Virus record (IMG/VR): IMGVR_UViG_2711768074_000016
Location: 1 to 6,755 of that record
DNA length: 6,755 bases
Direction: 5' to 3' (one strand)
Origin: a virus
Taxonomy: Duplodnaviria; Heunggongvirae; Uroviricota; Caudoviricetes
This document shows, piece by piece, positions 1-6,755 of the stretch; the first letter of the stretch is position 1, and each line of letters starts with the position of its first letter. A model generated the notes under the pieces. The model saw only the letters and a list, made by a program, of their open reading frames with translations. It searched no databases and was not told the origin of the DNA. A program made the position numbers and the translations under genes.

Positions 1-225
1 CTGTTCAGCGGCAAACCGATCCCCGACAACCGGGAAAACATCACTATTCGTCTGGATGATCACATTCAGTCTGTTCAGGGTAAAGAGAGCTATGAAGATG
101 AGATGTTCAGCATCAGATACTTTAAGAAGGGCTCCGCGCACATCACGTTCAGAAAACCGGAACTGGTTGATCGGCTAAATGACATCATTGCGAAGCATTA
201 TCCGGGGCAACTATCAGCCATCTGA
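1..225 (+). CDS. 3' end of a hypothetical protein (5'-truncated by the window edge); C-terminal 74 aa ...FRKPELVDRLNDIIAKHYPGQLSAI*
   Basis: Open frame 1 runs from the window edge to TGA at 223-225. It is convergent with the minus-strand operon and followed by a hairpin terminator. No family recognised from the fragment. Confidence 0.45.
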   Translation: MFSGKPIPDNRENITIRLDDHIQSVQGKESYEDEMFSIRYFKKGSAHITFRKPELVDRLNDIIAKHYPGQLSAI

Positions 226-243
226 GTCAGATGGAGAAAAAGC

Positions 244-267
244 TTACCTGACCCATTACCTGACCCA
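244..267. repeat. Perfect 12-bp tandem direct repeat (ttacctgaccca x2)
   Basis: Read directly: 244-255 equals 256-267. Lies between the stop of the plus-strand CDS and the terminator hairpin. Confidence 0.7.
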
Positions 268-282
268 ATTCAAAGGCAAAAG

Positions 283-323
283 AAAAAGGGTTAGCTGGTT
301 TATTAGCTAACCCTTTGTTGTAT
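283..323. terminator. Bidirectional intrinsic terminator between the convergent plus-strand gene and the tRNA
   Basis: 9-bp stem gggttagct (288-296) / agctaaccc (305-313) with an 8-nt loop. T-rich on the plus strand after the stem (tttgttgt) and on the minus strand after it (tttttctttt). Confidence 0.5.
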
Positions 324-324
324 A

Positions 325-400
325 TGGTGGCCCCTGCTGGACTTGAACCAGCGACCAAGCGATTATGAGTCGCTCGCTCTCACCACTGAGCTAAAGGGCC
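325..400 (-). tRNA. tRNA with anticodon CAU, tRNA-Ile2 (lysidine-type, ileX/ileZ-like) rather than tRNA-Met; 76 nt including encoded CCA
   Basis: The reverse complement folds as a canonical cloverleaf: acceptor GGCCCTT/AGGGGCC, D-stem GCTC/GAGC, anticodon stem AGCGA/TCGCT with loop CTCATAA, T-stem GCTGG/CCAGC with TTCAAGT loop, then ACCA. It is near-identical to E. coli ileX as I remember it, with a few substitutions typical of prophage copies. Confidence 0.88.
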
Positions 401-440
401 GGGAGCCGCATAATAACGACGCGTAATTAATTCTTCAATA

Positions 441-1499
441 TCATCCGTTCTGGCTGACTAAATCCTGTACTTCCCGAACCGTCTGCTCAAAACGTTCAGT
501 CTCCAGCTCAACGCCAATTGCACGACGCCCGAGCGCCAGTGCCGCTTTCACTGTCGAACCCGACCCCATGAAAAAATCTGCAATCAGGTCACCCGGACGA
601 CTGCTAGCGCTGATTATCTGCTGCAGCATTTCTGCCGGTTTTTCGCACGGATGTTTCCCGGGATAGAACTGCACCGGTTTATGCGTCCACACATCGGTAT
701 ACGGCACCTGCACCGTCACGCCAAAATACCGCCGCAGATGCTTATATTCACTCAGCAGTTCCATATACTGCCGGTTCAGCTCACTGTATGTGCTGACCAG
801 TTGGTAATGGGACTTTTCCAGTTCTCCCCGCTGATGTTTCTCTTCTGCCACCCGGGCAAACAGCGACTGTAATTTCAGATAATCGCTTTCGTTCGGTAGC
901 TGCCACTGACTGGCACTGAACCAGTGCGACACCATGTTTTTCTTTCCTGTGGCATCTGCAATCTGTTTTGCCGTTATCCCCAGGGCCGCGCGCGCATCAC
1001 GAAAGTAAGAAATCAGCGGGGCCATCACATGCTGTTTCAGTGCACTGCCCTTCGCCGCATACCCGGCATCTTTCGGACGATACGGCCCCTGATAATGTTC
1101 CGCGAACAGAATGCGCTCTGTGGCGGGGAAATACGCCCGCAGGCTTTCCTTGTTGCATCCGTTCCAGCGTCCGGACGGCTTCGCCCAGATAATATGGTTC
1201 AGCACACTGAAGCGTTCACGCATCATGATTTCGATATCAGATGCCAGGCGATGACCACAGAACAGGTAAAGACTTCCGGCAGGTTTCAGCACCCGCCAGA
1301 ACTGCGCCAGACACTGGTCCAGCCACTTCAGGTAATCATCGTCGCCCTTCCACTGGTTATCCCAGCCCTCGGGCTTCACTTTAAAGTATGGCGGGTCTGT
1401 GACTATCAGATCGACAGAGTTTTCCGGTAAGGTCTGGATAAATTCCAGGCAATCAGCGTTGATTAACTCACAACTGGATATTTTTACAGTATTAGCCAT
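441..1499 (-). CDS. DNA methyltransferase, beta-class (N6-adenine or N4-cytosine), probable phage orphan methylase, 352 aa
   Basis: Motif IV (VTDPPYF) lies near the N-terminus at residues ~33-39 and the AdoMet-binding motif I (DFFMGSGST) near the C-terminus. That permuted order is characteristic of beta-group amino-methyltransferases. No adjacent restriction endonuclease gene is visible. The RBS is weak. Confidence 0.85.
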   Translation of the reverse strand: MANTVKISSCELINADCLEFIQTLPENSVDLIVTDPPYFKVKPEGWDNQWKGDDDYLKWLDQCLAQFWRVLKPAGSLYLFCGHRLASDIEIMMRERFSVLNHIIWAKPSGRWNGCNKESLRAYFPATERILFAEHYQGPYRPKDAGYAAKGSALKQHVMAPLISYFRDARAALGITAKQIADATGKKNMVSHWFSASQWQLPNESDYLKLQSLFARVAEEKHQRGELEKSHYQLVSTYSELNRQYMELLSEYKHLRRYFGVTVQVPYTDVWTHKPVQFYPGKHPCEKPAEMLQQIISASSRPGDLIADFFMGSGSTVKAALALGRRAIGVELETERFEQTVREVQDLVSQNG

Positions 1500-1649
1500 A
1501 GATCAATAAGCACTTCTCTGATAGGCTCATACCGCTTTTGCGCAAAGCAGATGGGCCTGAGGTTTGCTTGTGACCCCAACGCATGAGCAGATGGCTGGCA
1601 GGTGCCGCTAACACCCACCAGCCGCCCATTACCACAAATAAAAAAGCCT

Positions 1650-1970
1650 TCACTGAGGAAGGCGTCTGTAACAACCGAACTGATAATCTGCCAGACCCGC
1701 CATAACAAGCTGGGTCAGTATTAACTGGCAGCGTTCGCGTGAAAGATAAGTGTTCTGCGCAATTTCCCCGGCGGTCGCCGGTTCGGTGACGCTTAATTCA
1801 TTAAACACCACTCTGGCGGTTTCGGTCATATCCTGCTGTTTTAGCATGCCTTTTTCCATTTTCCGGTTAACGTGACATACCAATAACTCTTGTCGAAAAA
1901 GCCAGCAAGTTGAAAGACCGGTATTAGCAACCACCAGCGCGTTTAACGCCCCGTGCCGTTTTTCAGTCAT
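1650..1970 (-). CDS. Hypothetical protein (106 aa), coding status uncertain; C-terminal half has a helix-turn-helix-like character
   Basis: Longest minus-strand ORF between the Q-like gene and the methylase. Its ATG directly abuts the T-tract of the upstream terminator and has no Shine-Dalgarno. Two alternative-frame ORFs overlap it (1484-1708, 1492-1674). Confidence 0.3.
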   Translation of the reverse strand: MTEKRHGALNALVVANTGLSTCWLFRQELLVCHVNRKMEKGMLKQQDMTETARVVFNELSVTEPATAGEIAQNTYLSRERCQLILTQLVMAGLADYQFGCYRRLPQ

Positions 1971-1999
1971 AAAAAAACCCGCAAAAAGCGGGCTCTTTC
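1971..1999 (-). terminator. Intrinsic terminator immediately downstream of the Q-like gene (tR'-like)
   Basis: On the minus strand: stem cccgc/gcggg with a 5-nt loop followed by seven T residues (gcccgctttttgcgggttttttt). About 80-100 nt downstream of the Q-like stop, matching the short pR'-tR' arrangement of lambdoid phages. Confidence 0.55.
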
Positions 2000-2071
2000 A
2001 AATGTCCATGTCTGCTATTCGCCTCGCGGTACAGCTTTGCGAAGCTTACCGGAATTGAAGCAGTTTTTACG

Positions 2072-2638
2072 TCAAAAAGCAATAACTTTTTTCTCTATAC
2101 CAAAAGCCATAACCATTGGTTTGTACAAAATAAATTCTGCCACCTTTAGCCAATGCTCAATGCGTCTTTCACAGGTTCTTAAACTCCATTCCGGATGTGC
2201 ATCATTCAGCAGTTCAGCCATTTTGCGCTTAGTCATCCCCCGCCCCACATAACGCTGACTCAGAACATTGAGCAGCCCGGGATAACCTGCCAGTACTTCA
2301 CCAATAACCCTGTCGATTATTAACGCCTCTGAATCGGTACAATGTGCCAGCCAGCTTTTTTGATTGCCGTTGATCATATCCCGCAAAAAAGCCTCAAGTT
2401 CAGGTTTGTCCAGACCCGCTTTTTTCATCCTCCGGAGCGCCTCGTTAATTGCCGTTTTTGTCAGCTTTTTAGAGGTCAGTAATTGGTTGAACATATTTCC
2501 CGTCTTACCGTCGCCAATATACGACCAACGCCCCCACATACGCAGTTTCCCCTGGATCCAGACACTTTCCAGCGTTTTCAGGCGTAAATGCTCACCGCTT
2601 TTGCCTGTAATTTCCGGGTATATCATATTTATGCTCAC
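2072..2638 (-). CDS. Putative late-gene antiterminator Q-like protein, 188 aa
   Basis: Position immediately after rusA and before a strong terminator, as in lambdoid nin-Q regions. The LRMWGRW motif resembles the RWGAW motif I recall in Q-like proteins such as DLP12 QuuD. The track start at 2638 is GTG and overlaps the rusA stop; an in-frame ATG at 2626 is an alternative start. Confidence 0.5.
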   Translation of the reverse strand: MSINMIYPEITGKSGEHLRLKTLESVWIQGKLRMWGRWSYIGDGKTGNMFNQLLTSKKLTKTAINEALRRMKKAGLDKPELEAFLRDMINGNQKSWLAHCTDSEALIIDRVIGEVLAGYPGLLNVLSQRYVGRGMTKRKMAELLNDAHPEWSLRTCERRIEHWLKVAEFILYKPMVMAFGIEKKVIAF

Positions 2639-2994
2639 TCACTTTCAATTTTGTAAATCTTCACGCCCAGCCGCCCACCAGAAACGAGCTGACCGCGCAC
2701 AATATTGATTTCATCAAACTGCTCGTCGTCTATAAGTAGTCCGGCATGCGTAAGCGCATCCAGTGGTGCCTTCAGGATATTGTCCAGGTCGCGGCGGCGC
2801 TTATCCGGTGGCTCTGCAATAATCTTTATCGCCAGCCTTCCGGACAGGTTTAATTTCAGCCACTGCTGGCGAACAATAAGTGCCACATCCCGGCGATAAC
2901 GCTCACCGGCTTTTGACACAAAATATGTGCTGCCACGACGTCGCCAGTAGGTGTTCACCGTCGGCGGGTAAGGCAAAACAAACTCTATACGCAT
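2635..2994 (-). CDS. rusA: Crossover junction endodeoxyribonuclease RusA (Holliday junction resolvase), 119 aa
   Basis: The translation has the RusA hallmark RRRDLDN acidic catalytic motif and is collinear with E. coli RusA, which is ~120 aa. Good RBS (aagagg, 6-nt spacer). Stop overlaps the start of the next gene. Confidence 0.9.
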   Translation of the reverse strand: MRIEFVLPYPPTVNTYWRRRGSTYFVSKAGERYRRDVALIVRQQWLKLNLSGRLAIKIIAEPPDKRRRDLDNILKAPLDALTHAGLLIDDEQFDEINIVRGQLVSGGRLGVKIYKIESE

Positions 2995-3006
2995 CAGTAA
3001 CCTCTT

Positions 3007-4056
3007 TTACCCGAGCACGCCGGTTGCAAAGGCGCGATCAAGAAAACGAAAAATTAAATCAATCTGGGAACCATGCTTTTCTTCAAATGCCAGCGGATCA
3101 GCATGAAGTTCGTTGTGATGCTCCCGGCACAACGGTAGCGTGAAAATATCGTGGGCTTTTGTCCCTATTCCGCCCTGACCATGACCAATCAGGTGATGGG
3201 GATCGTCGGCTGGCTTACCACAACACGCACACGGCTGTGTCTTTACCCAGCGCGTATATTTCTCATTTACCCAACGGCGACGTTTAGGTCGCTTCATTAA
3301 AGATTCCGGAGACTCCGGATCAACAGCAATGCTGACCACCGTCTTTTCCTGTGGCGGGTTCTGTTGCTGGTGGGCGTGAGGCAGCGGCGCAAGATTTTTT
3401 GTGCGCTGTTTCAGTATGCTGGTGGCGGTCTGCTCTCCCGGTACGATGTCGCTTTCACGGTACATTGAGCGGATTTTTTCCGCACGCAACCCCAGCGAAC
3501 GACGTAATACCGCTTCCGGTAGCGCGTCCGCCACCTGATTGCGGATCGCCCACCAGGATAATTCAGCCAGCGATAATTCCCGTTCCTGCGAGCCATTCAT
3601 TGCATGGCGTATGACGTCAATCATCCATGCAGACAGGTTTTGGTGAGCAAGTTGCCCGAGTGATTCGGAGGTCTGGTCGCGCAGCTGGTTGTCGCAGTGC
3701 CAGCACAACACCATTGCGCCGGTACCATAACGATGTATGACGGTTTCACTGTGATGGTAGTCACCATGAGGCCACTGGCAGGATTTGACATGACGCAGGA
3801 GCCAGTCAGACAGTGCGCCAGCGCCGCCAGCAGCACGAATCACACGCTCATCGCTGAAAAATGGCAGTAATGATTTATCCTCCGCCAGCGGCTGGCGAAC
3901 GGCAGGGACGACTCCGGACGGCAGACCGCGCATGCTTTTCGGTTCCGGCTCCACCAGCACCCTGCCGCAATGAAAAACCGGCAGTGATTCGCGACCGGGC
4001 TTAAGGACCACCAGCCCGAGTTCCGGTACCAGAACAGGTCGAAGTAATACCCGCAC
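3007..4056 (-). CDS. ydfU: DUF968-family prophage protein (YdfU-like), 349 aa, with a C-terminal Cys/His HNH-like motif
   Basis: Same length and N-terminus (MRVLLRPVLVPELG...) as the Qin prophage YdfU that I recall. C-terminal CACCGKPADDPHHL...CREHHNELH cluster. Tightly packed with both neighbours (1-nt gap to the upstream stop, 12-nt gap to rusA). Confidence 0.8.
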   Translation of the reverse strand: MRVLLRPVLVPELGLVVLKPGRESLPVFHCGRVLVEPEPKSMRGLPSGVVPAVRQPLAEDKSLLPFFSDERVIRAAGGAGALSDWLLRHVKSCQWPHGDYHHSETVIHRYGTGAMVLCWHCDNQLRDQTSESLGQLAHQNLSAWMIDVIRHAMNGSQERELSLAELSWWAIRNQVADALPEAVLRRSLGLRAEKIRSMYRESDIVPGEQTATSILKQRTKNLAPLPHAHQQQNPPQEKTVVSIAVDPESPESLMKRPKRRRWVNEKYTRWVKTQPCACCGKPADDPHHLIGHGQGGIGTKAHDIFTLPLCREHHNELHADPLAFEEKHGSQIDLIFRFLDRAFATGVLG

Positions 4057-4057
4057 G

Positions 4058-4336
4058 TTACCTCCAGATGCGTTGCTGGAATGTGCGGGACAGACGCGGT
4101 GGGCGTTCGGAGTAAGGAAGCCCGACGGAGATTATCCAGTGACGGTAGTCGAGGCTAAGGGCTTTTTTAACCTCGCATCCGCGCCTGCGGTAACACTGAA
4201 TGAGCCATTCGGCCTGTTCTTCAGTGCATGGGGGATGCTGGTACCAGTCTGACTTAAATGCGTGAGAATACCGCTCGTGCGTGTGGGCAAGAACGGTCGA
4301 ATTATCATGATTGTAATATTTTGCGTTGCGTGCCAT
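4058..4336 (-). CDS. Hypothetical prophage protein, 92 aa
   Basis: Strong RBS (GGAGG, 6-nt spacer before ATG at 4336). Stop immediately precedes the DUF968 start, suggesting translational coupling. No family recognised. Confidence 0.6.
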   Translation of the reverse strand: MARNAKYYNHDNSTVLAHTHERYSHAFKSDWYQHPPCTEEQAEWLIQCYRRRGCEVKKALSLDYRHWIISVGLPYSERPPRLSRTFQQRIWR

Positions 4337-4402
4337 CGGTTTCCTCCGGCGGCACGGTGTTACTCAGCGGGAGTTCAGCCCCGCGCAAGATTGTAGATGA
4401 GT

Positions 4403-4654
4403 TTATTCTTCTGAAAAAGCAGAAAAGCCAGCTTTTATTCCGATCTCTTTCAGTGCCTGTAATGAAGTGACAAACTCACCTTCGCGCAAGATAAATCCGT
4501 CTGTCACTCGACCATCCACAAAATTAATTAACGCAGCCCCATTCTTTCGCAAACACACAATGCGGTAATGACTAACAATATTTCCATTTTCAACGCACAC
4601 AGCATAGAGGCCATCTTCACAAAAAATTTTACGCAGTTCTTCGATGTTCATCAT
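4403..4654 (-). CDS. rem: Rem-like small prophage protein, 83 aa
   Basis: Same length, MMNIEELRK N-terminus and position (between hokD and the DUF968 gene) as the Qin prophage rem gene as I recall it. RBS GGAAGG with a 6-nt spacer. Confidence 0.65.
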   Translation of the reverse strand: MMNIEELRKIFCEDGLYAVCVENGNIVSHYRIVCLRKNGAALINFVDGRVTDGFILREGEFVTSLQALKEIGIKAGFSAFSEE

Positions 4655-4770
4655 CAGAATCCTTCCGGATAATTAGCTCTCCCCTTTAAGGGACCATCCC
4701 TCTTATCCCTGCGCGCTACTTAAGTATTTTTGATTCTATTCCGACACCGTCCAGAACTTCAAATGCGTTG

Positions 4771-4800
4771 AAAATAAAAACAAAAACCCGCCGAAGCGGG
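4771..4800 (-). terminator. Intrinsic terminator of the hok mRNA
   Basis: On the minus strand: stem cccgc/gcggg with a 4-nt loop followed by tttttgtttttatttt. About 70 nt downstream of the hok stop. Confidence 0.65.
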
Positions 4801-4870
4801 TTAAGTGCGGGTGCGTTGAGGATGCCTGACACATCAGCGGTGGCGAGGGATTTCTCCCCCGCCTGGTCTC

Positions 4871-5026
4871 TTACTCCTCAGGTTCGTAAGCTGTGAAGAC
4901 AGCGACCTCCGTCTGGCCGGTTCGGATTCGTACCTCGCAGAGGTCTTTCCTCGTTACCAGTGCCGTCACTATGACGGTTAAACAGATGACGATCAGGGCG
5001 ATTAACATCGCCTTTTGCTGCTTCAT
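4871..5026 (-). CDS. hokD: Hok-family type I toxin (HokD/RelF-like), 51 aa
   Basis: The translation MKQQKAMLIALIVICLTVIVTALVTRKDLCEVRIRTGQTEVAVFTAYEPEE matches HokD as I remember it. RBS AAGGAG upstream of ATG at 5026. Single transmembrane helix followed by a periplasmic tail. Confidence 0.85.
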   Translation of the reverse strand: MKQQKAMLIALIVICLTVIVTALVTRKDLCEVRIRTGQTEVAVFTAYEPEE

Positions 5027-5083
5027 AGCCTGCTTCTCCTTGCCTTTCGGCGCGTAAGAGGCTAACCTACGTTTGTGAAGCAT
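4871..5083 (-). CDS. mok-like reading frame: in-frame N-terminal extension of hok (70 aa) that gates hok translation
   Basis: ATG at 5083 with GAGG 8 nt upstream. The 19-aa extension MLHKRRLASYAPKGKEKQA parallels the MokC extension in K-12, which is likewise in frame with its hok. Confidence 0.45.
   Translation of the reverse strand: MLHKRRLASYAPKGKEKQAMKQQKAMLIALIVICLTVIVTALVTRKDLCEVRIRTGQTEVAVFTAYEPEE
5040..5068 (+). promoter_or_regulatory. Candidate promoter for a Sok-like antisense RNA (-35 TTGCCT, 17-bp spacer, -10 TAACCT)
   Basis: Hexamers read on the plus strand inside the mok/hok overlap, positioned so that a transcript would run antisense across the mok start codon and SD. Sequence pattern only. 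Confidence 0.25.
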
Positions 5084-5152
5084 AGATTGGGCCTCAGATT
5101 AATGTTAAGCGTCTTGCAGGACGCGTAATGTTAACTGGGGCTTTTCTCTGTC
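5075..5152 (+). ncRNA. Putative Sok-like antisense RNA complementary to the mok translation initiation region
   Basis: Inferred from the candidate promoter plus a downstream hairpin (gcgtc...gacgc at 5111-5126, enclosed by gcctcag/ctggggc) followed by ttttctc. Ends are not defined. Confidence 0.2.
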
Positions 5153-5237
5153 TGCCTTACGGTGGCATGCCCGAGGCAGACAGCCTCAAGCACCCGCAGC
5201 AATTCTACTTAACTCCCGTCACCTCGCCAATATAAAA

Positions 5238-5327
5238 TCAATCAGAAAGGCGATCCATAAGAACAATAGCAAGACAATAAATTGCCACTACAGCCGCAAT
5301 AGCCAGCGCGCATTTGAGAACCAGCAC
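5238..5327 (-). CDS. Possible small hydrophobic protein, 29 aa (VLVLKCALAIAAVVAIYCLAIVLMDRLSD, GTG start)
   Basis: Consensus AGGAGG Shine-Dalgarno 5 nt upstream of GTG at 5327. Single predicted transmembrane segment with a charged C-terminus. Starts ~70 nt downstream of the SIR2-like gene stop on the same strand. Below the ORF-track size cutoff; unverified. Confidence 0.25.
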   Translation of the reverse strand: MLVLKCALAIAAVVAIYCLAIVLMDRLSD

Positions 5328-5397
5328 GATAACCTCCTGTATTGGACGTACACCAGCTCTGATAAATATGAGGCTGCCTCTTTAACTTCGCATTGCG

Positions 5398-6429
5398 CTA
5401 CCAATCAATAAAATCAGTGATGTTATCCAACCTAATTACAGTAACTTCCCGTCTCAACTGGTTTTTCCAATATATCTCACGAGCGTTTTGTTCACCAGCA
5501 CCGCTCCACTCAATTACTCTTAAAGGCTTAGAGGTTAGGTAAGGTCGAATAAGCAGGTTAAGGTGAATATCGAGACCAGAGTAACCAAACAATATTATTT
5601 CTTCTGATTCAAATAATGCAAACTGCAAATAATCCCAGTACGTAGAAAGAACATTAGATGCTGCTATAACTGACGGTTTTCTTTTTATATGAGTTAACAC
5701 TATATGCTCACTAGGTTCATCTATGTCAAGAGTAAGTTGTGAGCGTGAAAGTTTTAAAACATTTTCATGCTGATTAATAAATAGTGGTGAACCATGCAAG
5801 TGCAAATAATAACCAAACCTACGATTGTATTTCCGTTCGAGCGCTGCAGAGGAAAATCCGTGGCTTAGCATCCCATCAACTAAAACCCCATCATACCCGT
5901 TGAATATATCATTATCTATGAATGAATTGTATAATAATTTGTCATAGTTTAATGTCGCGATATGTGAGTGTGTGTTCTTTACAAACTCCACAAGCGCATT
6001 TTCGAATCTTTGTGGCAAACCTTTATCGTAATTATGCAACCTGGTTGCAACTTTGTGAATATAAGTGGCGGTAATTTTGGGGAAGTTTAGTCCATCTTCA
6101 GTAAGCCAATGCACGTTCCCCTCTCCAATTTGAGCAAGAGCTTTACAATATGTGACAGCCTGGTGAAGGGTATCCAACTCATGTTCTCCTTCTGGTGGAC
6201 CTTGCCGCTGAAGACAACGCTCGATAAGTTGCTTGTGGATATCTTTTAAAAAATTGGGGCGATGCCAAATTTCTTCCAACGCTCTGTCTAAGGAGAAGTG
6301 AGCAGGATCTAAAGCCATACCGAGACCGTTGCCGAATATTATTAATTTTCTTGCCATATAGGGGGACTCATATTGGAATAACGCTGGATAGCGTCGCGCG
6401 ATACGCTTAAGTTTAGGATTAATAGACAT
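5398..6429 (-). CDS. Stand-alone SIR2-like domain protein (SIR2_2/ThsA-like fold), candidate NAD+-depleting antiphage defence effector, 343 aa
   Basis: The translation carries the four SIR2_2-type motifs in the correct order and spacing: a Rossmann glycine-rich loop LIIFGNGLG (res 29-37), TLNYDKLL (res ~158-166, putative catalytic Asn161), LHLHGS (putative catalytic His212, codon at 5794-5796) and ILFGYSGLD (res ~278-287). Compare ThsA: FAGAGLS, TTNYDRL, MHGD, LFVGFSFTD. The gene is AT-rich with many rare ATA and AGA/AGG codons. The start is uncertain: 6429 has a weak RBS and the in-frame ATG at 6357 is an alternative. Confidence 0.6.
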   Translation of the reverse strand: MSINPKLKRIARRYPALFQYESPYMARKLIIFGNGLGMALDPAHFSLDRALEEIWHRPNFLKDIHKQLIERCLQRQGPPEGEHELDTLHQAVTYCKALAQIGEGNVHWLTEDGLNFPKITATYIHKVATRLHNYDKGLPQRFENALVEFVKNTHSHIATLNYDKLLYNSFIDNDIFNGYDGVLVDGMLSHGFSSAALERKYNRRFGYYLHLHGSPLFINQHENVLKLSRSQLTLDIDEPSEHIVLTHIKRKPSVIAASNVLSTYWDYLQFALFESEEIILFGYSGLDIHLNLLIRPYLTSKPLRVIEWSGAGEQNAREIYWKNQLRREVTVIRLDNITDFIDW

Positions 6430-6651
6430 TCCGTTTGATTACTCTTGTTATTACAAACTTGCATGCAAAGAAGCCCAAGCTGTTAGGTAAACAGAGACCG
6501 CAGTGGCAAGATAATCTAGATATAGCCTATAAAATCCAACAACAAATAGCGGCCTGTTTTCTATGACTTTTCTTTTCCCTAAATATCGCTTATCTAATAA
6601 AATGCAATAATGTATTGCACAGTATTTAATGTGTATTAATATAGATAAGTA

Positions 6652-6755
6652 GGTGATGCTGCCAACTTACTGATTTAGTGTATGATGGTGTTTTTGAGGT
6701 GCTCCAGTGGCTTCTGTTTCTATCAGCTGTCCCTCCTGTTCAGCTACTGACGGGG
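6652..6755 (+). mobile_element. IS1 insertion sequence, left end (partial; continues beyond the window)
   Basis: The canonical IS1 left inverted repeat GGTGATGCTGCCAACTTACTGAT starts at 6652 and is followed by sequence identical to the IS1 5' region as I recall it. Confidence 0.9.
6707..6755 (+). CDS. insA: IS1 InsA, N-terminal fragment (3'-truncated by the window edge)
   Basis: GTG at 6707 followed by codons for ASVSISCPSCSATDG, the InsA N-terminus. Confidence 0.8.
   Translation, partial: MASVSISCPSCSATDG

Follow-up and report, generated by a model that had tools for sequence, protein, structure and literature searches.

Small single-pass proteins of the inner membrane, such as AcrZ, MgtS, MgrB, and CydX, have been reviewed together with small toxins (PMC12648545). 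Here, we analyze a 29-codon open reading frame (ORF) carried by a 6,755-nucleotide stretch of viral DNA (Caudoviricetes; positions 1 to 6,755 of the IMG/VR record IMGVR_UViG_2711768074_000016; hereafter, the window), where it is located between a SIR2-like gene and a hok/mok/sok toxin-antitoxin locus. Its predicted product, MLVLKCALAIAAVVAIYCLAIVLMDRLSD, which we refer to as class A, resembles the proteins listed above in being shorter than 50 amino acids, in consisting of a single hydrophobic helix, in being preceded by a strong Shine-Dalgarno (SD) sequence, and in being missed by annotation. However, it has no sequence similarity to any of them, and whereas AcrZ, MgtS, MgrB, and CydX are chromosomal core genes with known partners, class A is prophage-borne and restricted to Escherichia. 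It fits the kind of small single-pass membrane protein encoded by a prophage, as an uncharacterized Escherichia-restricted family.

By sequence, the closest known entity to class A is XECs145, a novel gene of E. coli O157:H7 Sakai (Hucker et al. 2017, PLoS One, PMC5597208), which belongs to a group of relatives that we call class B. It was reported solely as a novel gene positive by ribosome profiling (RIBOseq), with a longer start assumed, and its product was predicted to be an inner-membrane protein with one transmembrane (TM) helix (PMC5597208). In lysogeny broth (LB), it showed 79 reads per kilobase per million (RPKM) for RNA and 346 RPKM for RIBOseq, with a ribosomal coverage value (RCV) of 4.35 and a coverage of 0.99, and in the brain heart infusion (BHI) control, the corresponding values were 121.3 RPKM, 150.1 RPKM, 1.14, and 0.84 (PMC5597208). 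Like class A, XECs145 and class B have the core AL-A..AV...(I/V)YCL.V.LMDRL, lie directly before the hok promoter of a prophage, are preceded by a strong SD, are predicted to form one TM helix, and are under purifying selection. They differ from it in five additional acidic N-terminal residues and an ATG start.

We consider it likely that the 29-codon ORF is a real membrane-microprotein gene of the backbone of Escherichia lambdoid (Qin-like) prophages and not a partner of the SIR2-like gene. As far as comparative analysis can show, the gene is real, is under purifying selection for a hydrophobic helix, has conserved expression signals, is independent of both SIR2 and hok, and has a translated homolog.

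Coding evidence and expression signals

A first reading of the DNA from its letters alone (the sequence-only reading) had noticed an AGGAGG motif 5 nt before a GTG, a hydrophobic peptide of one helix, and a distance of ~70 nt from the SIR2-like stop on the same strand. All three hold. The SD is found at that spacing (Table 1), the gap between the SIR2-like stop (TAG, 5400-5398) and the GTG measures 70 nt, and the translation agrees with the peptide given at the time except for the initiator Met. The best 19-residue Kyte-Doolittle window of the peptide scores 2.84 (3.07 for Hok), and nearly the whole protein is one predicted TM helix (approximately residues 6 to 24), followed by the short polar tail M-D/E-R/H-L/F-S-D. 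Within the window on its own, the signal does not exceed chance: the 6.7 kb hold 87 ORFs of at least 25 amino acids, and AGGAGG occurs twice where 1.8 sites are expected. What raises the ORF above chance is comparative, namely the conservation of the frame, the codon-position bias, the conserved promoter and SD, and the translated homolog.

Phage loci were gathered in two ways, anchored either on the -10 hexamer and 5' end of hok or on the central 18 nt of the ORF. With the latter anchor, the start, frame, and stop are kept without indels in 131 of 134 related loci, the three exceptions being an IS1 insertion (L135), a stop codon changed to Cys (L190), and a decayed copy (L201). The pairwise ratio of nonsynonymous to synonymous polymorphism (pN/pS) within class A is 0.39 in the frame of the ORF, the lowest of the six frames. 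The 38 distinct alleles hold 25 synonymous and 30 nonsynonymous codon variants, against 22 and 62 sites, respectively (binomial p = 0.0016). Loss of the frame in homologous loci, which the sequence-only reading had named among the outcomes that would speak against a gene, was therefore not what these comparisons of frame and of synonymous versus nonsynonymous change returned. In codons 6 to 24, none of the 21 nonsynonymous variants leads to a charged or strongly polar residue, to Pro, or to a stop, although 31% of the single-base changes open to these codons would do so (p = 4.5e-4). Among the intact copies, L132 is the most diverged (82% nucleotide identity, with no hok downstream); it differs by 10 synonymous codons and only four nonsynonymous ones, all conservative (A>V, A>V, I>V, and D>E).

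Class B is a 34-amino-acid ORF (MSDDISLAMEGALAVIAVVGVYCLVVFLMDRLGN) found at the same position in other prophages, with 55% amino acid and 60% nucleotide identity to class A. In it, Y, C, L, L, R, and L (Y-C-L...L-M-D-R-L) are retained, mostly with synonymous differences in their codons, and its within-class pN/pS is 0.18, with values above 1 in its other frames. Between classes A and B, pN/pS is 0.50 in frame 0 and 0.47 in frame 1, a comparison that is not decisive alone; the case for coding leans instead on the within-class statistics and on the diverged copy L132. Two competing frames, one of 38 amino acids overlapping the ORF (5404..5288) and a +1 frame reading 'RWLLLL', were rejected, as their ends vary between classes and their pN/pS is higher. 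A terminator-like hairpin within the ORF (5303-5284, three GC pairs) was taken as chance.

The expression signals are conserved as well. Five upstream subtypes (main, HannyBb/L004, L026, L132, and the plasmid copy L133) keep TTGA(A/G)(T/G), a spacer of unrelated sequence with a fixed length of 17 nt, and CATATT, together with the motif TACGTC(C/A)A and an AGGAG/GGAGG SD core. The TACGTC(C/A)A motif stands ~4 to 10 nt before the SD, and the bases around it vary between subtypes. Weakening of the SD core is limited to a few copies and to the decayed L201, a pseudogene in which damage has reached both promoter hexamers, the SD, and the frame. The pattern shared by the five subtypes matches what a sigma-70 promoter with a 5' untranslated region (UTR) of ~30 nt should leave, the start site being a predicted one, and to judge from its sequence the promoter looks constitutive. 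The 5' UTR and ORF together did not fold better than shuffled sequence (z = +0.7), and nothing in the fold pointed to a sequestered SD. An SD-sequestering leader or a small RNA was rejected on this value and on the fact that sok is the only Rfam family at the locus.

Distribution of the gene and its proposed role

A Qin-like lambdoid prophage of E. coli FDAARGOS_1059 matches the window at 100% identity; its gene order is cro, cII-like, O-like, DUF977, SIR2, the 29-codon ORF, hokD, rem, DUF968, RusA, Q-like, methyltransferase, and tRNAs. Of 5426 complete E. coli genomes, 1959 matched a query of 155 bp (the ORF and 58 nt upstream), most of them at 90 to 95% identity. About a third of sequenced E. 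coli genomes thus carry a gene that standard annotation almost never calls. RefSeq has no feature under the match in nearly every one of these genomes, and one RefSeq genome annotates the class A frame, as the 'hypothetical protein' WP_000960667.1. In NCBI, the exact peptide and its variants are entered as 'hypothetical protein', 'membrane protein', 'putative membrane protein', or 'conserved hypothetical protein [REL606]' (other examples are ACT39199.1 and MCJ2196538.1). The ORF had been called unannotated from the sequence, which is right for almost all RefSeq genomes but not for the protein, already present in NCBI under these names. The accompanying remark that ORF callers miss small proteins of this kind is borne out by the comparative evidence and the near-absence of the gene from RefSeq annotation.

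A protein search with a 41-amino-acid in-frame extension matched only Escherichia entries named 'hypothetical' or 'membrane protein', and a scan of GTDB with the core motif returned only Escherichia/Shigella, plus three evidently contaminated contigs of metagenome-assembled genomes. Neither the class A peptide nor its class B and C relatives had a significant match in Pfam, NCBIfam, PHROGs, or PADLOC (for class A, no Pfam match at E <= 1 and a best PHROG E-value of 0.74). A full-text literature search on the peptide strings found no mention of them, and a preprint on CFT073 small proteins describes ORFs other than these.

In most genomes (94EC, L002, for example; most E. coli matches fall at ~2.3 to 2.6 Mb), the small gene is the leftmost survivor of a cryptic prophage remnant, which consists of ORF-hokD-DUF968-RusA-Q and abuts chromosomal genes for an MFS transporter and a LysR protein. 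Much of the prevalence of the gene is therefore vertical inheritance. A copy with promoter, SD, and ATG start was also observed on a pINV-type virulence plasmid (L133; NZ_CP065614.1, the 261-kb plasmid of FDAARGOS_944); its product is MLVLKGTLAIAAVMTIYCLIVVLMERFSD. Found ~280 nt upstream of icsP, this copy falls within the long ospZ-icsP intergenic region and beside a decayed hok leader.

Class C is a 27-amino-acid ORF of one helix (MTWPEAFTTVGIAMAVALVVYSICRWG) from the same prophage region and is absent from this window. It is like class A in being a single-helix microprotein with a strong SD, but homology between the two is not demonstrable, their helix register and tail differ, and class C has no promoter of its own, its start often overlapping the stop of the upstream gene (ATGA; translational coupling). 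Its pN/pS is 0.25, with other frames above 1, and a stop at codon 3 interrupts 2 of 24 copies. Class C either immediately precedes hok, ending 23 nt short of the hok -10 anchor in L015, L024, L030, and others, or precedes class A or B in tandem. A class-C-like ORF stands just upstream of class B (e.g., L011 and L025) and of some class A loci. The flanks of class B differ from those of class A in this small ORF before it and in a palindrome after it. The latter (CCGATATGGGAATTCCCATATCGG) spans 24 bp, is perfect, and lacks a T-run. It is conserved in the stretch from the class B ORF to the hok promoter (e.g., L025) and also present in some hok loci without any small ORF, and it may bind a protein or form an RNA hairpin.

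Most copies of the gene carry their own sigma-70-type promoter, with the ~30-nt 5' UTR and the strong SD described above, and downstream of a cargo (moron or defense) site of highly variable content, the gene is the first conserved member of the backbone. To judge from its composition, the protein would insert into the inner membrane. Microproteins such as AcrZ, MgtS, and MgrB bind larger membrane proteins, and from them we borrow a mode of action in which the class A helix would contact another membrane protein through a face of conserved small residues (A7/A9/A12/A15), the invariant Tyr17-Cys18, and the M-(D/E)-(R/H) boundary. This specific mode is a tentative suggestion by analogy, and it may well be wrong. 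The protein would be a nontoxic accessory factor of the prophage rather than a killer, since the promoter looks constitutive, the SD is unmasked, and the homolog is efficiently translated in growing cells. The finding is an annotation and a lead rather than a new mechanism. It adds to the catalog of prophage membrane microproteins an entry with a defined promoter, SD, and allelic series.

Several observations weigh against this interpretation. Selection on class A is only moderate (pN/pS ~0.4), and the variant counts ignore phylogeny and recombination. The prevalence reflects largely the vertical descent of one cryptic prophage remnant, which makes the intactness of the copies weaker evidence than the raw counts; even so, the different tests agree in direction. 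Some copies have been broken without obvious consequence, by IS1 in L135, by loss of the stop in L190 and in L144-L147, and by loss of the promoter in BL21(DE3). In L144-L147, where the ORF lies beside an 87%-identical SIR2 allele, an 11-nt deletion took the stop, and the frame reads MLALTCVLAIVAVLVIYCLVVAFMERFSDWRGRGS and ends within the spacer of the hok promoter, whose -35 and -10 hexamers are still intact. In BL21(DE3) (L131; NZ_CP053602.1, 2204-2613), as in E. coli B strains, a deletion has joined the region to a shortened DUF977 gene, leaving the small ORF wholly without its promoter and overlapping the 3' end of the DUF977 frame; in REL606, it is labeled a 'conserved hypothetical protein'. 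The RIBOseq evidence belongs to the class B homolog (55% identity) and not to the 29-codon class, and Sakai has many near-identical prophages, so that reads may map to several of them; a spontaneously induced subpopulation may also have contributed. Membrane insertion, topology, and the helix-helix mode are drawn from composition only, and the positive-inside rule gives conflicting answers, N-in for class A (K5 versus the acidic tail) but not for class B, with its acidic N terminus.

Alternative readings of the small gene

The sequence-only reading had offered an independent small toxin as one option, that is, a membrane toxin of the type I kind that would depolarize the inner membrane when expressed. 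The peptide is similar in size and composition to TisB, DinQ, Ibs, and Zor-type toxins, it is encoded in a prophage, it adjoins another type I toxin, hok, and a promoter-like site matching at 9 of 12 positions is found on the opposite strand at 5209-5238. This site was rejected as an antisense promoter because it is not conserved: its -10 is TAAAAT in about half of the copies and TGAAAT in the rest, and it is absent from the loci without hok. Although class A shares with the type I toxins (Hok/Gef, TisB, DinQ, IbsC, and ZorO) the short hydrophobic peptide, the prophage setting, and the vicinity of hok, it differs from them in having no HOK_GEF match, no conserved antisense RNA promoter, and no SD-sequestering leader. 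Apart from sok, the antitoxin RNA of hok, Rfam detects no such RNA here; the SD is consensus-strong and, as the fold described above indicates, unmasked, and the promoter looks constitutive. In addition, the homolog XECs145 is translated in growing Sakai cells with an RCV of 4.35, among the higher values, unlike silenced type I toxins. Of four properties of type I systems, two are thus lacking (the antitoxin RNA and the translational silencing), while the small hydrophobic peptide is present (29 amino acids, 2.84). Membership in the Hok/Gef family (PF01848) was rejected in the absence of a profile match, the neighboring mok/hok frame scoring 3e-23. We therefore regard the toxin option as disfavored and a role as a killer as unlikely.

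A second alternative ties the ORF to hok/sok, either as a leader or interference element acting on hok transcription or as a membrane modulator or immunity factor for Hok. The two are physically close, since the ORF stops 8 nt before the -35 hexamer of hok, and with no terminator between them, transcripts from the ORF promoter would enter the hok promoter and leader. They are also found together often: ~90% of the copies of the small gene are directly upstream of hok/sok. In a comparison set of 123 hok loci that share the hok leader of the window, the upstream position is occupied by an intact class A ORF in 41 to 46 loci, by only its last 6 to 10 codons in 16 to 18, by class B in 25, by class C (the unrelated 27-amino-acid ORF) in 24, and by none of these in ~15, so that ~75% of them carry a class A, B, or C ORF or a remnant directly upstream.

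However, the association breaks on both sides. Fourteen loci keep the promoter, the SD, and the intact ORF with a convergent DUF1971 gene in place of hok, and in the pINV-like plasmid copy, the ORF is intact (with its ATG start), while hok has decayed; without a functional hok in these cases, the expectation for a leader or upstream ORF of hok, that it should occur only with hok, fails. Conversely, hokW of phage 933W has no such ORF upstream, nor do the ~15 other hok loci just mentioned, and the 16 to 18 loci with only the last codons of the ORF keep hok. The amino acid sequence is under selection, something that an element serving purely as leader or for interference would not require, and the synteny of the nin region accounts for the linkage. 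A functional link between the ORF and hok, which none of these observations demands, is in our opinion improbable. We give as little credence to the broader idea that, where the nin region begins, class A or B and class C before hok/sok form a conserved membrane module of Escherichia lambdoid prophages, in which one or two unrelated microproteins would be functional partners of Hok and more than its neighbors by synteny. If this were true, the microproteins could, for example, tune pore formation by Hok, give the lysogen immunity to its own Hok, or act with Hok in abortive infection or prophage maintenance.

A third alternative, also raised by the sequence-only reading, is that the ORF is a dedicated membrane anchor or effector of the SIR2-like protein in a two-gene defense system. 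In the window, the two genes lie on the same strand with no terminator in the 70 nt between them, and all 12 IMG/VR loci with this SIR2 (the 100% and 87% alleles) have the ORF downstream. In the loci with the 87%-identical allele (L144-L147), a hairpin (GCGAAGTTAG...CTAACTTCGC) comes after the SIR2 stop, then a complete TTGAAT-17-CATATT promoter and the diverged ORF, so that the SIR2 gene is parted from the ORF by the hairpin and by a promoter of the ORF's own. Compared with L145 (3530-3640) and with a copy free of SIR2, the window allele has suffered a deletion of ~100 bp that joins GCGAAGTTA to AAGAGGCAGCCTCATATT. The deletion took the right arm of the hairpin, which has a 10-bp stem, and the -35 hexamer, leaving the -10, the UTR, and the SD; ATGCGA at 5393-5388 now fills the slot of the -35 TTGAAT of other copies. 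Since its own -35 was deleted and no terminator separates the genes, the ORF probably depends on upstream transcription here, and cotranscription with SIR2 is likely in the window allele as a side effect of the deletion. Upstream of SIR2 lies a promoter-like site (TTGGCA-16-TATATT, 6665-6638). The window allele would thus be translated probably from read-through of the SIR2 gene or of the early rightward operon, which we interpret as an accident of insertion and not as a two-gene system.

While the cotranscription suggested at the outset is plausible in the window, the partnership does not stand. The SIR2 junction was matched in only 30 of the 1959 genomes that bear the ORF segment, and across 115 loci, the gene directly upstream of the ORF belongs to 36 unrelated families, among them SIR2/DUF4917, QueH, DUF4145, an AbiH-like family (PADLOC, 1.8e-27), a ThsA-like SIR2 (8.9e-32), Hp3, and many without a match. 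Homologs of the SIR2-like protein at 56 to 82% identity occur across the Gammaproteobacteria, and those of Serratia, Klebsiella, and Aeromonas stand alone, with no comparable ORF downstream, whereas the ORF family is confined to Escherichia; the peptide itself has no PADLOC match. A dedicated SIR2 partner is therefore very improbable.

The diversity of the upstream families makes the 29-codon ORF the conserved border of a cargo insertion hotspot. The variable slot lies between the DUF977 gene of the replication module and the small ORF (~5398-6700 in the window) and looks like a defense or moron hotspot of Qin-like lambdoid prophages; a literature search for a described lambdoid hok/nin hotspot found nothing relevant. 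A conserved gene at the right-hand border of such a site can mimic a partner of any cargo that lands there, here SIR2, and recognizing it helps to read these hotspots without inventing two-gene systems.

The least probable reading, which we hold to be highly improbable, is that of a chance frame conserved only at the level of DNA (as the upstream region of the hok promoter, as a recombination anchor by the cargo site, or through recent common descent): although the frame is short, starts with GTG, follows an AGGAGG that would be expected by chance, is skipped by most annotation pipelines, has a pN/pS (~0.4) that is not extreme, and owes many of its copies to one cryptic prophage remnant, the chance option of the sequence-only reading is excluded by the conservation of the frame, the pN/pS, the excess of synonymous variants, and the lack of disruptive changes in the helix, in addition to which the peptide of L132 and class B has been preserved by synonymous change at sites lacking a hok promoter, promoter and SD persist beside diverging spacers, promoter, SD, and frame decay together in L201, and the homolog XECs145 is translated.

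Layout of the window and minor observations

The features around the small gene are collected in Table 1. The 5' end of the hok mRNA is placed at ~5195 by the Rfam sok model. The longest SIR2 frame in the window has 343 amino acids, starting at 6429, and RefSeq and nearly all homologs from other genera use 319 amino acids; because the homologs have this length, the start is probably the ATG at 6357 (MARKLIIFGNG...).

Table 1. Positions of the 29-codon ORF, its expression signals, and its neighbors in the window
Feature	Position	Strand	Evidence and remarks
29-codon ORF (class A)	5238..5327	minus	ORF list and sequence; GTG start 5327-5325, TGA stop 5240-5238; product, single-pass hydrophobic microprotein MLVLKCALAIAAVVAIYCLAIVLMDRLSD
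Shine-Dalgarno AGGAGG	5333..5338	minus	Exactly 5 nt 5' of the GTG
5'-UTR motif TACGTC(C/A)A	5342..5350	minus	Common to all five diverged upstream subtypes
-10 hexamer CATATT of the sigma-70-type promoter of the ORF	5365..5370	minus	Transcription start site predicted at ~5358-5360
SIR2-cargo/backbone junction (~5383/5382)	5371..5397	minus	Alignment with the 87%-identical SIR2 allele and a SIR2-free copy
SIR2-like (SIR2_2/DUF4917) cargo gene, upstream neighbor	5398..6429	minus	Pfam PF13289; weak PADLOC SIR2 matches; RefSeq 'SIR2 family protein'
hok promoter TTGGCG-17-TAGAAT	5202..5230	minus	Promoter scan; starts 8 nt past the stop of the 29-codon ORF
hok/mok/sok type I toxin-antitoxin locus (hok 5026..4871), downstream neighbor	4871..5195	minus	Rfam RF01794, 116 bits over 5195-5021; Pfam HOK_GEF, E = 3e-23; RefSeq hokD

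Elsewhere in the window, a subthreshold match to the Rfam family isrK (24.9 bits, E = 0.03) lies at 4781-4862 on the minus strand, over the 3' end of hok and its terminator, and a second weak isrK match is found at 1972-2045, also on the minus strand. A tRNA with a CAT anticodon at 325-400 (minus strand) is the first of a phage tRNA cluster that follows the methyltransferase gene. It is called tRNA-Met by ARAGORN and tRNA-Ile in the identical RefSeq genome, and in the latter reading, it would presumably be lysidine modified.

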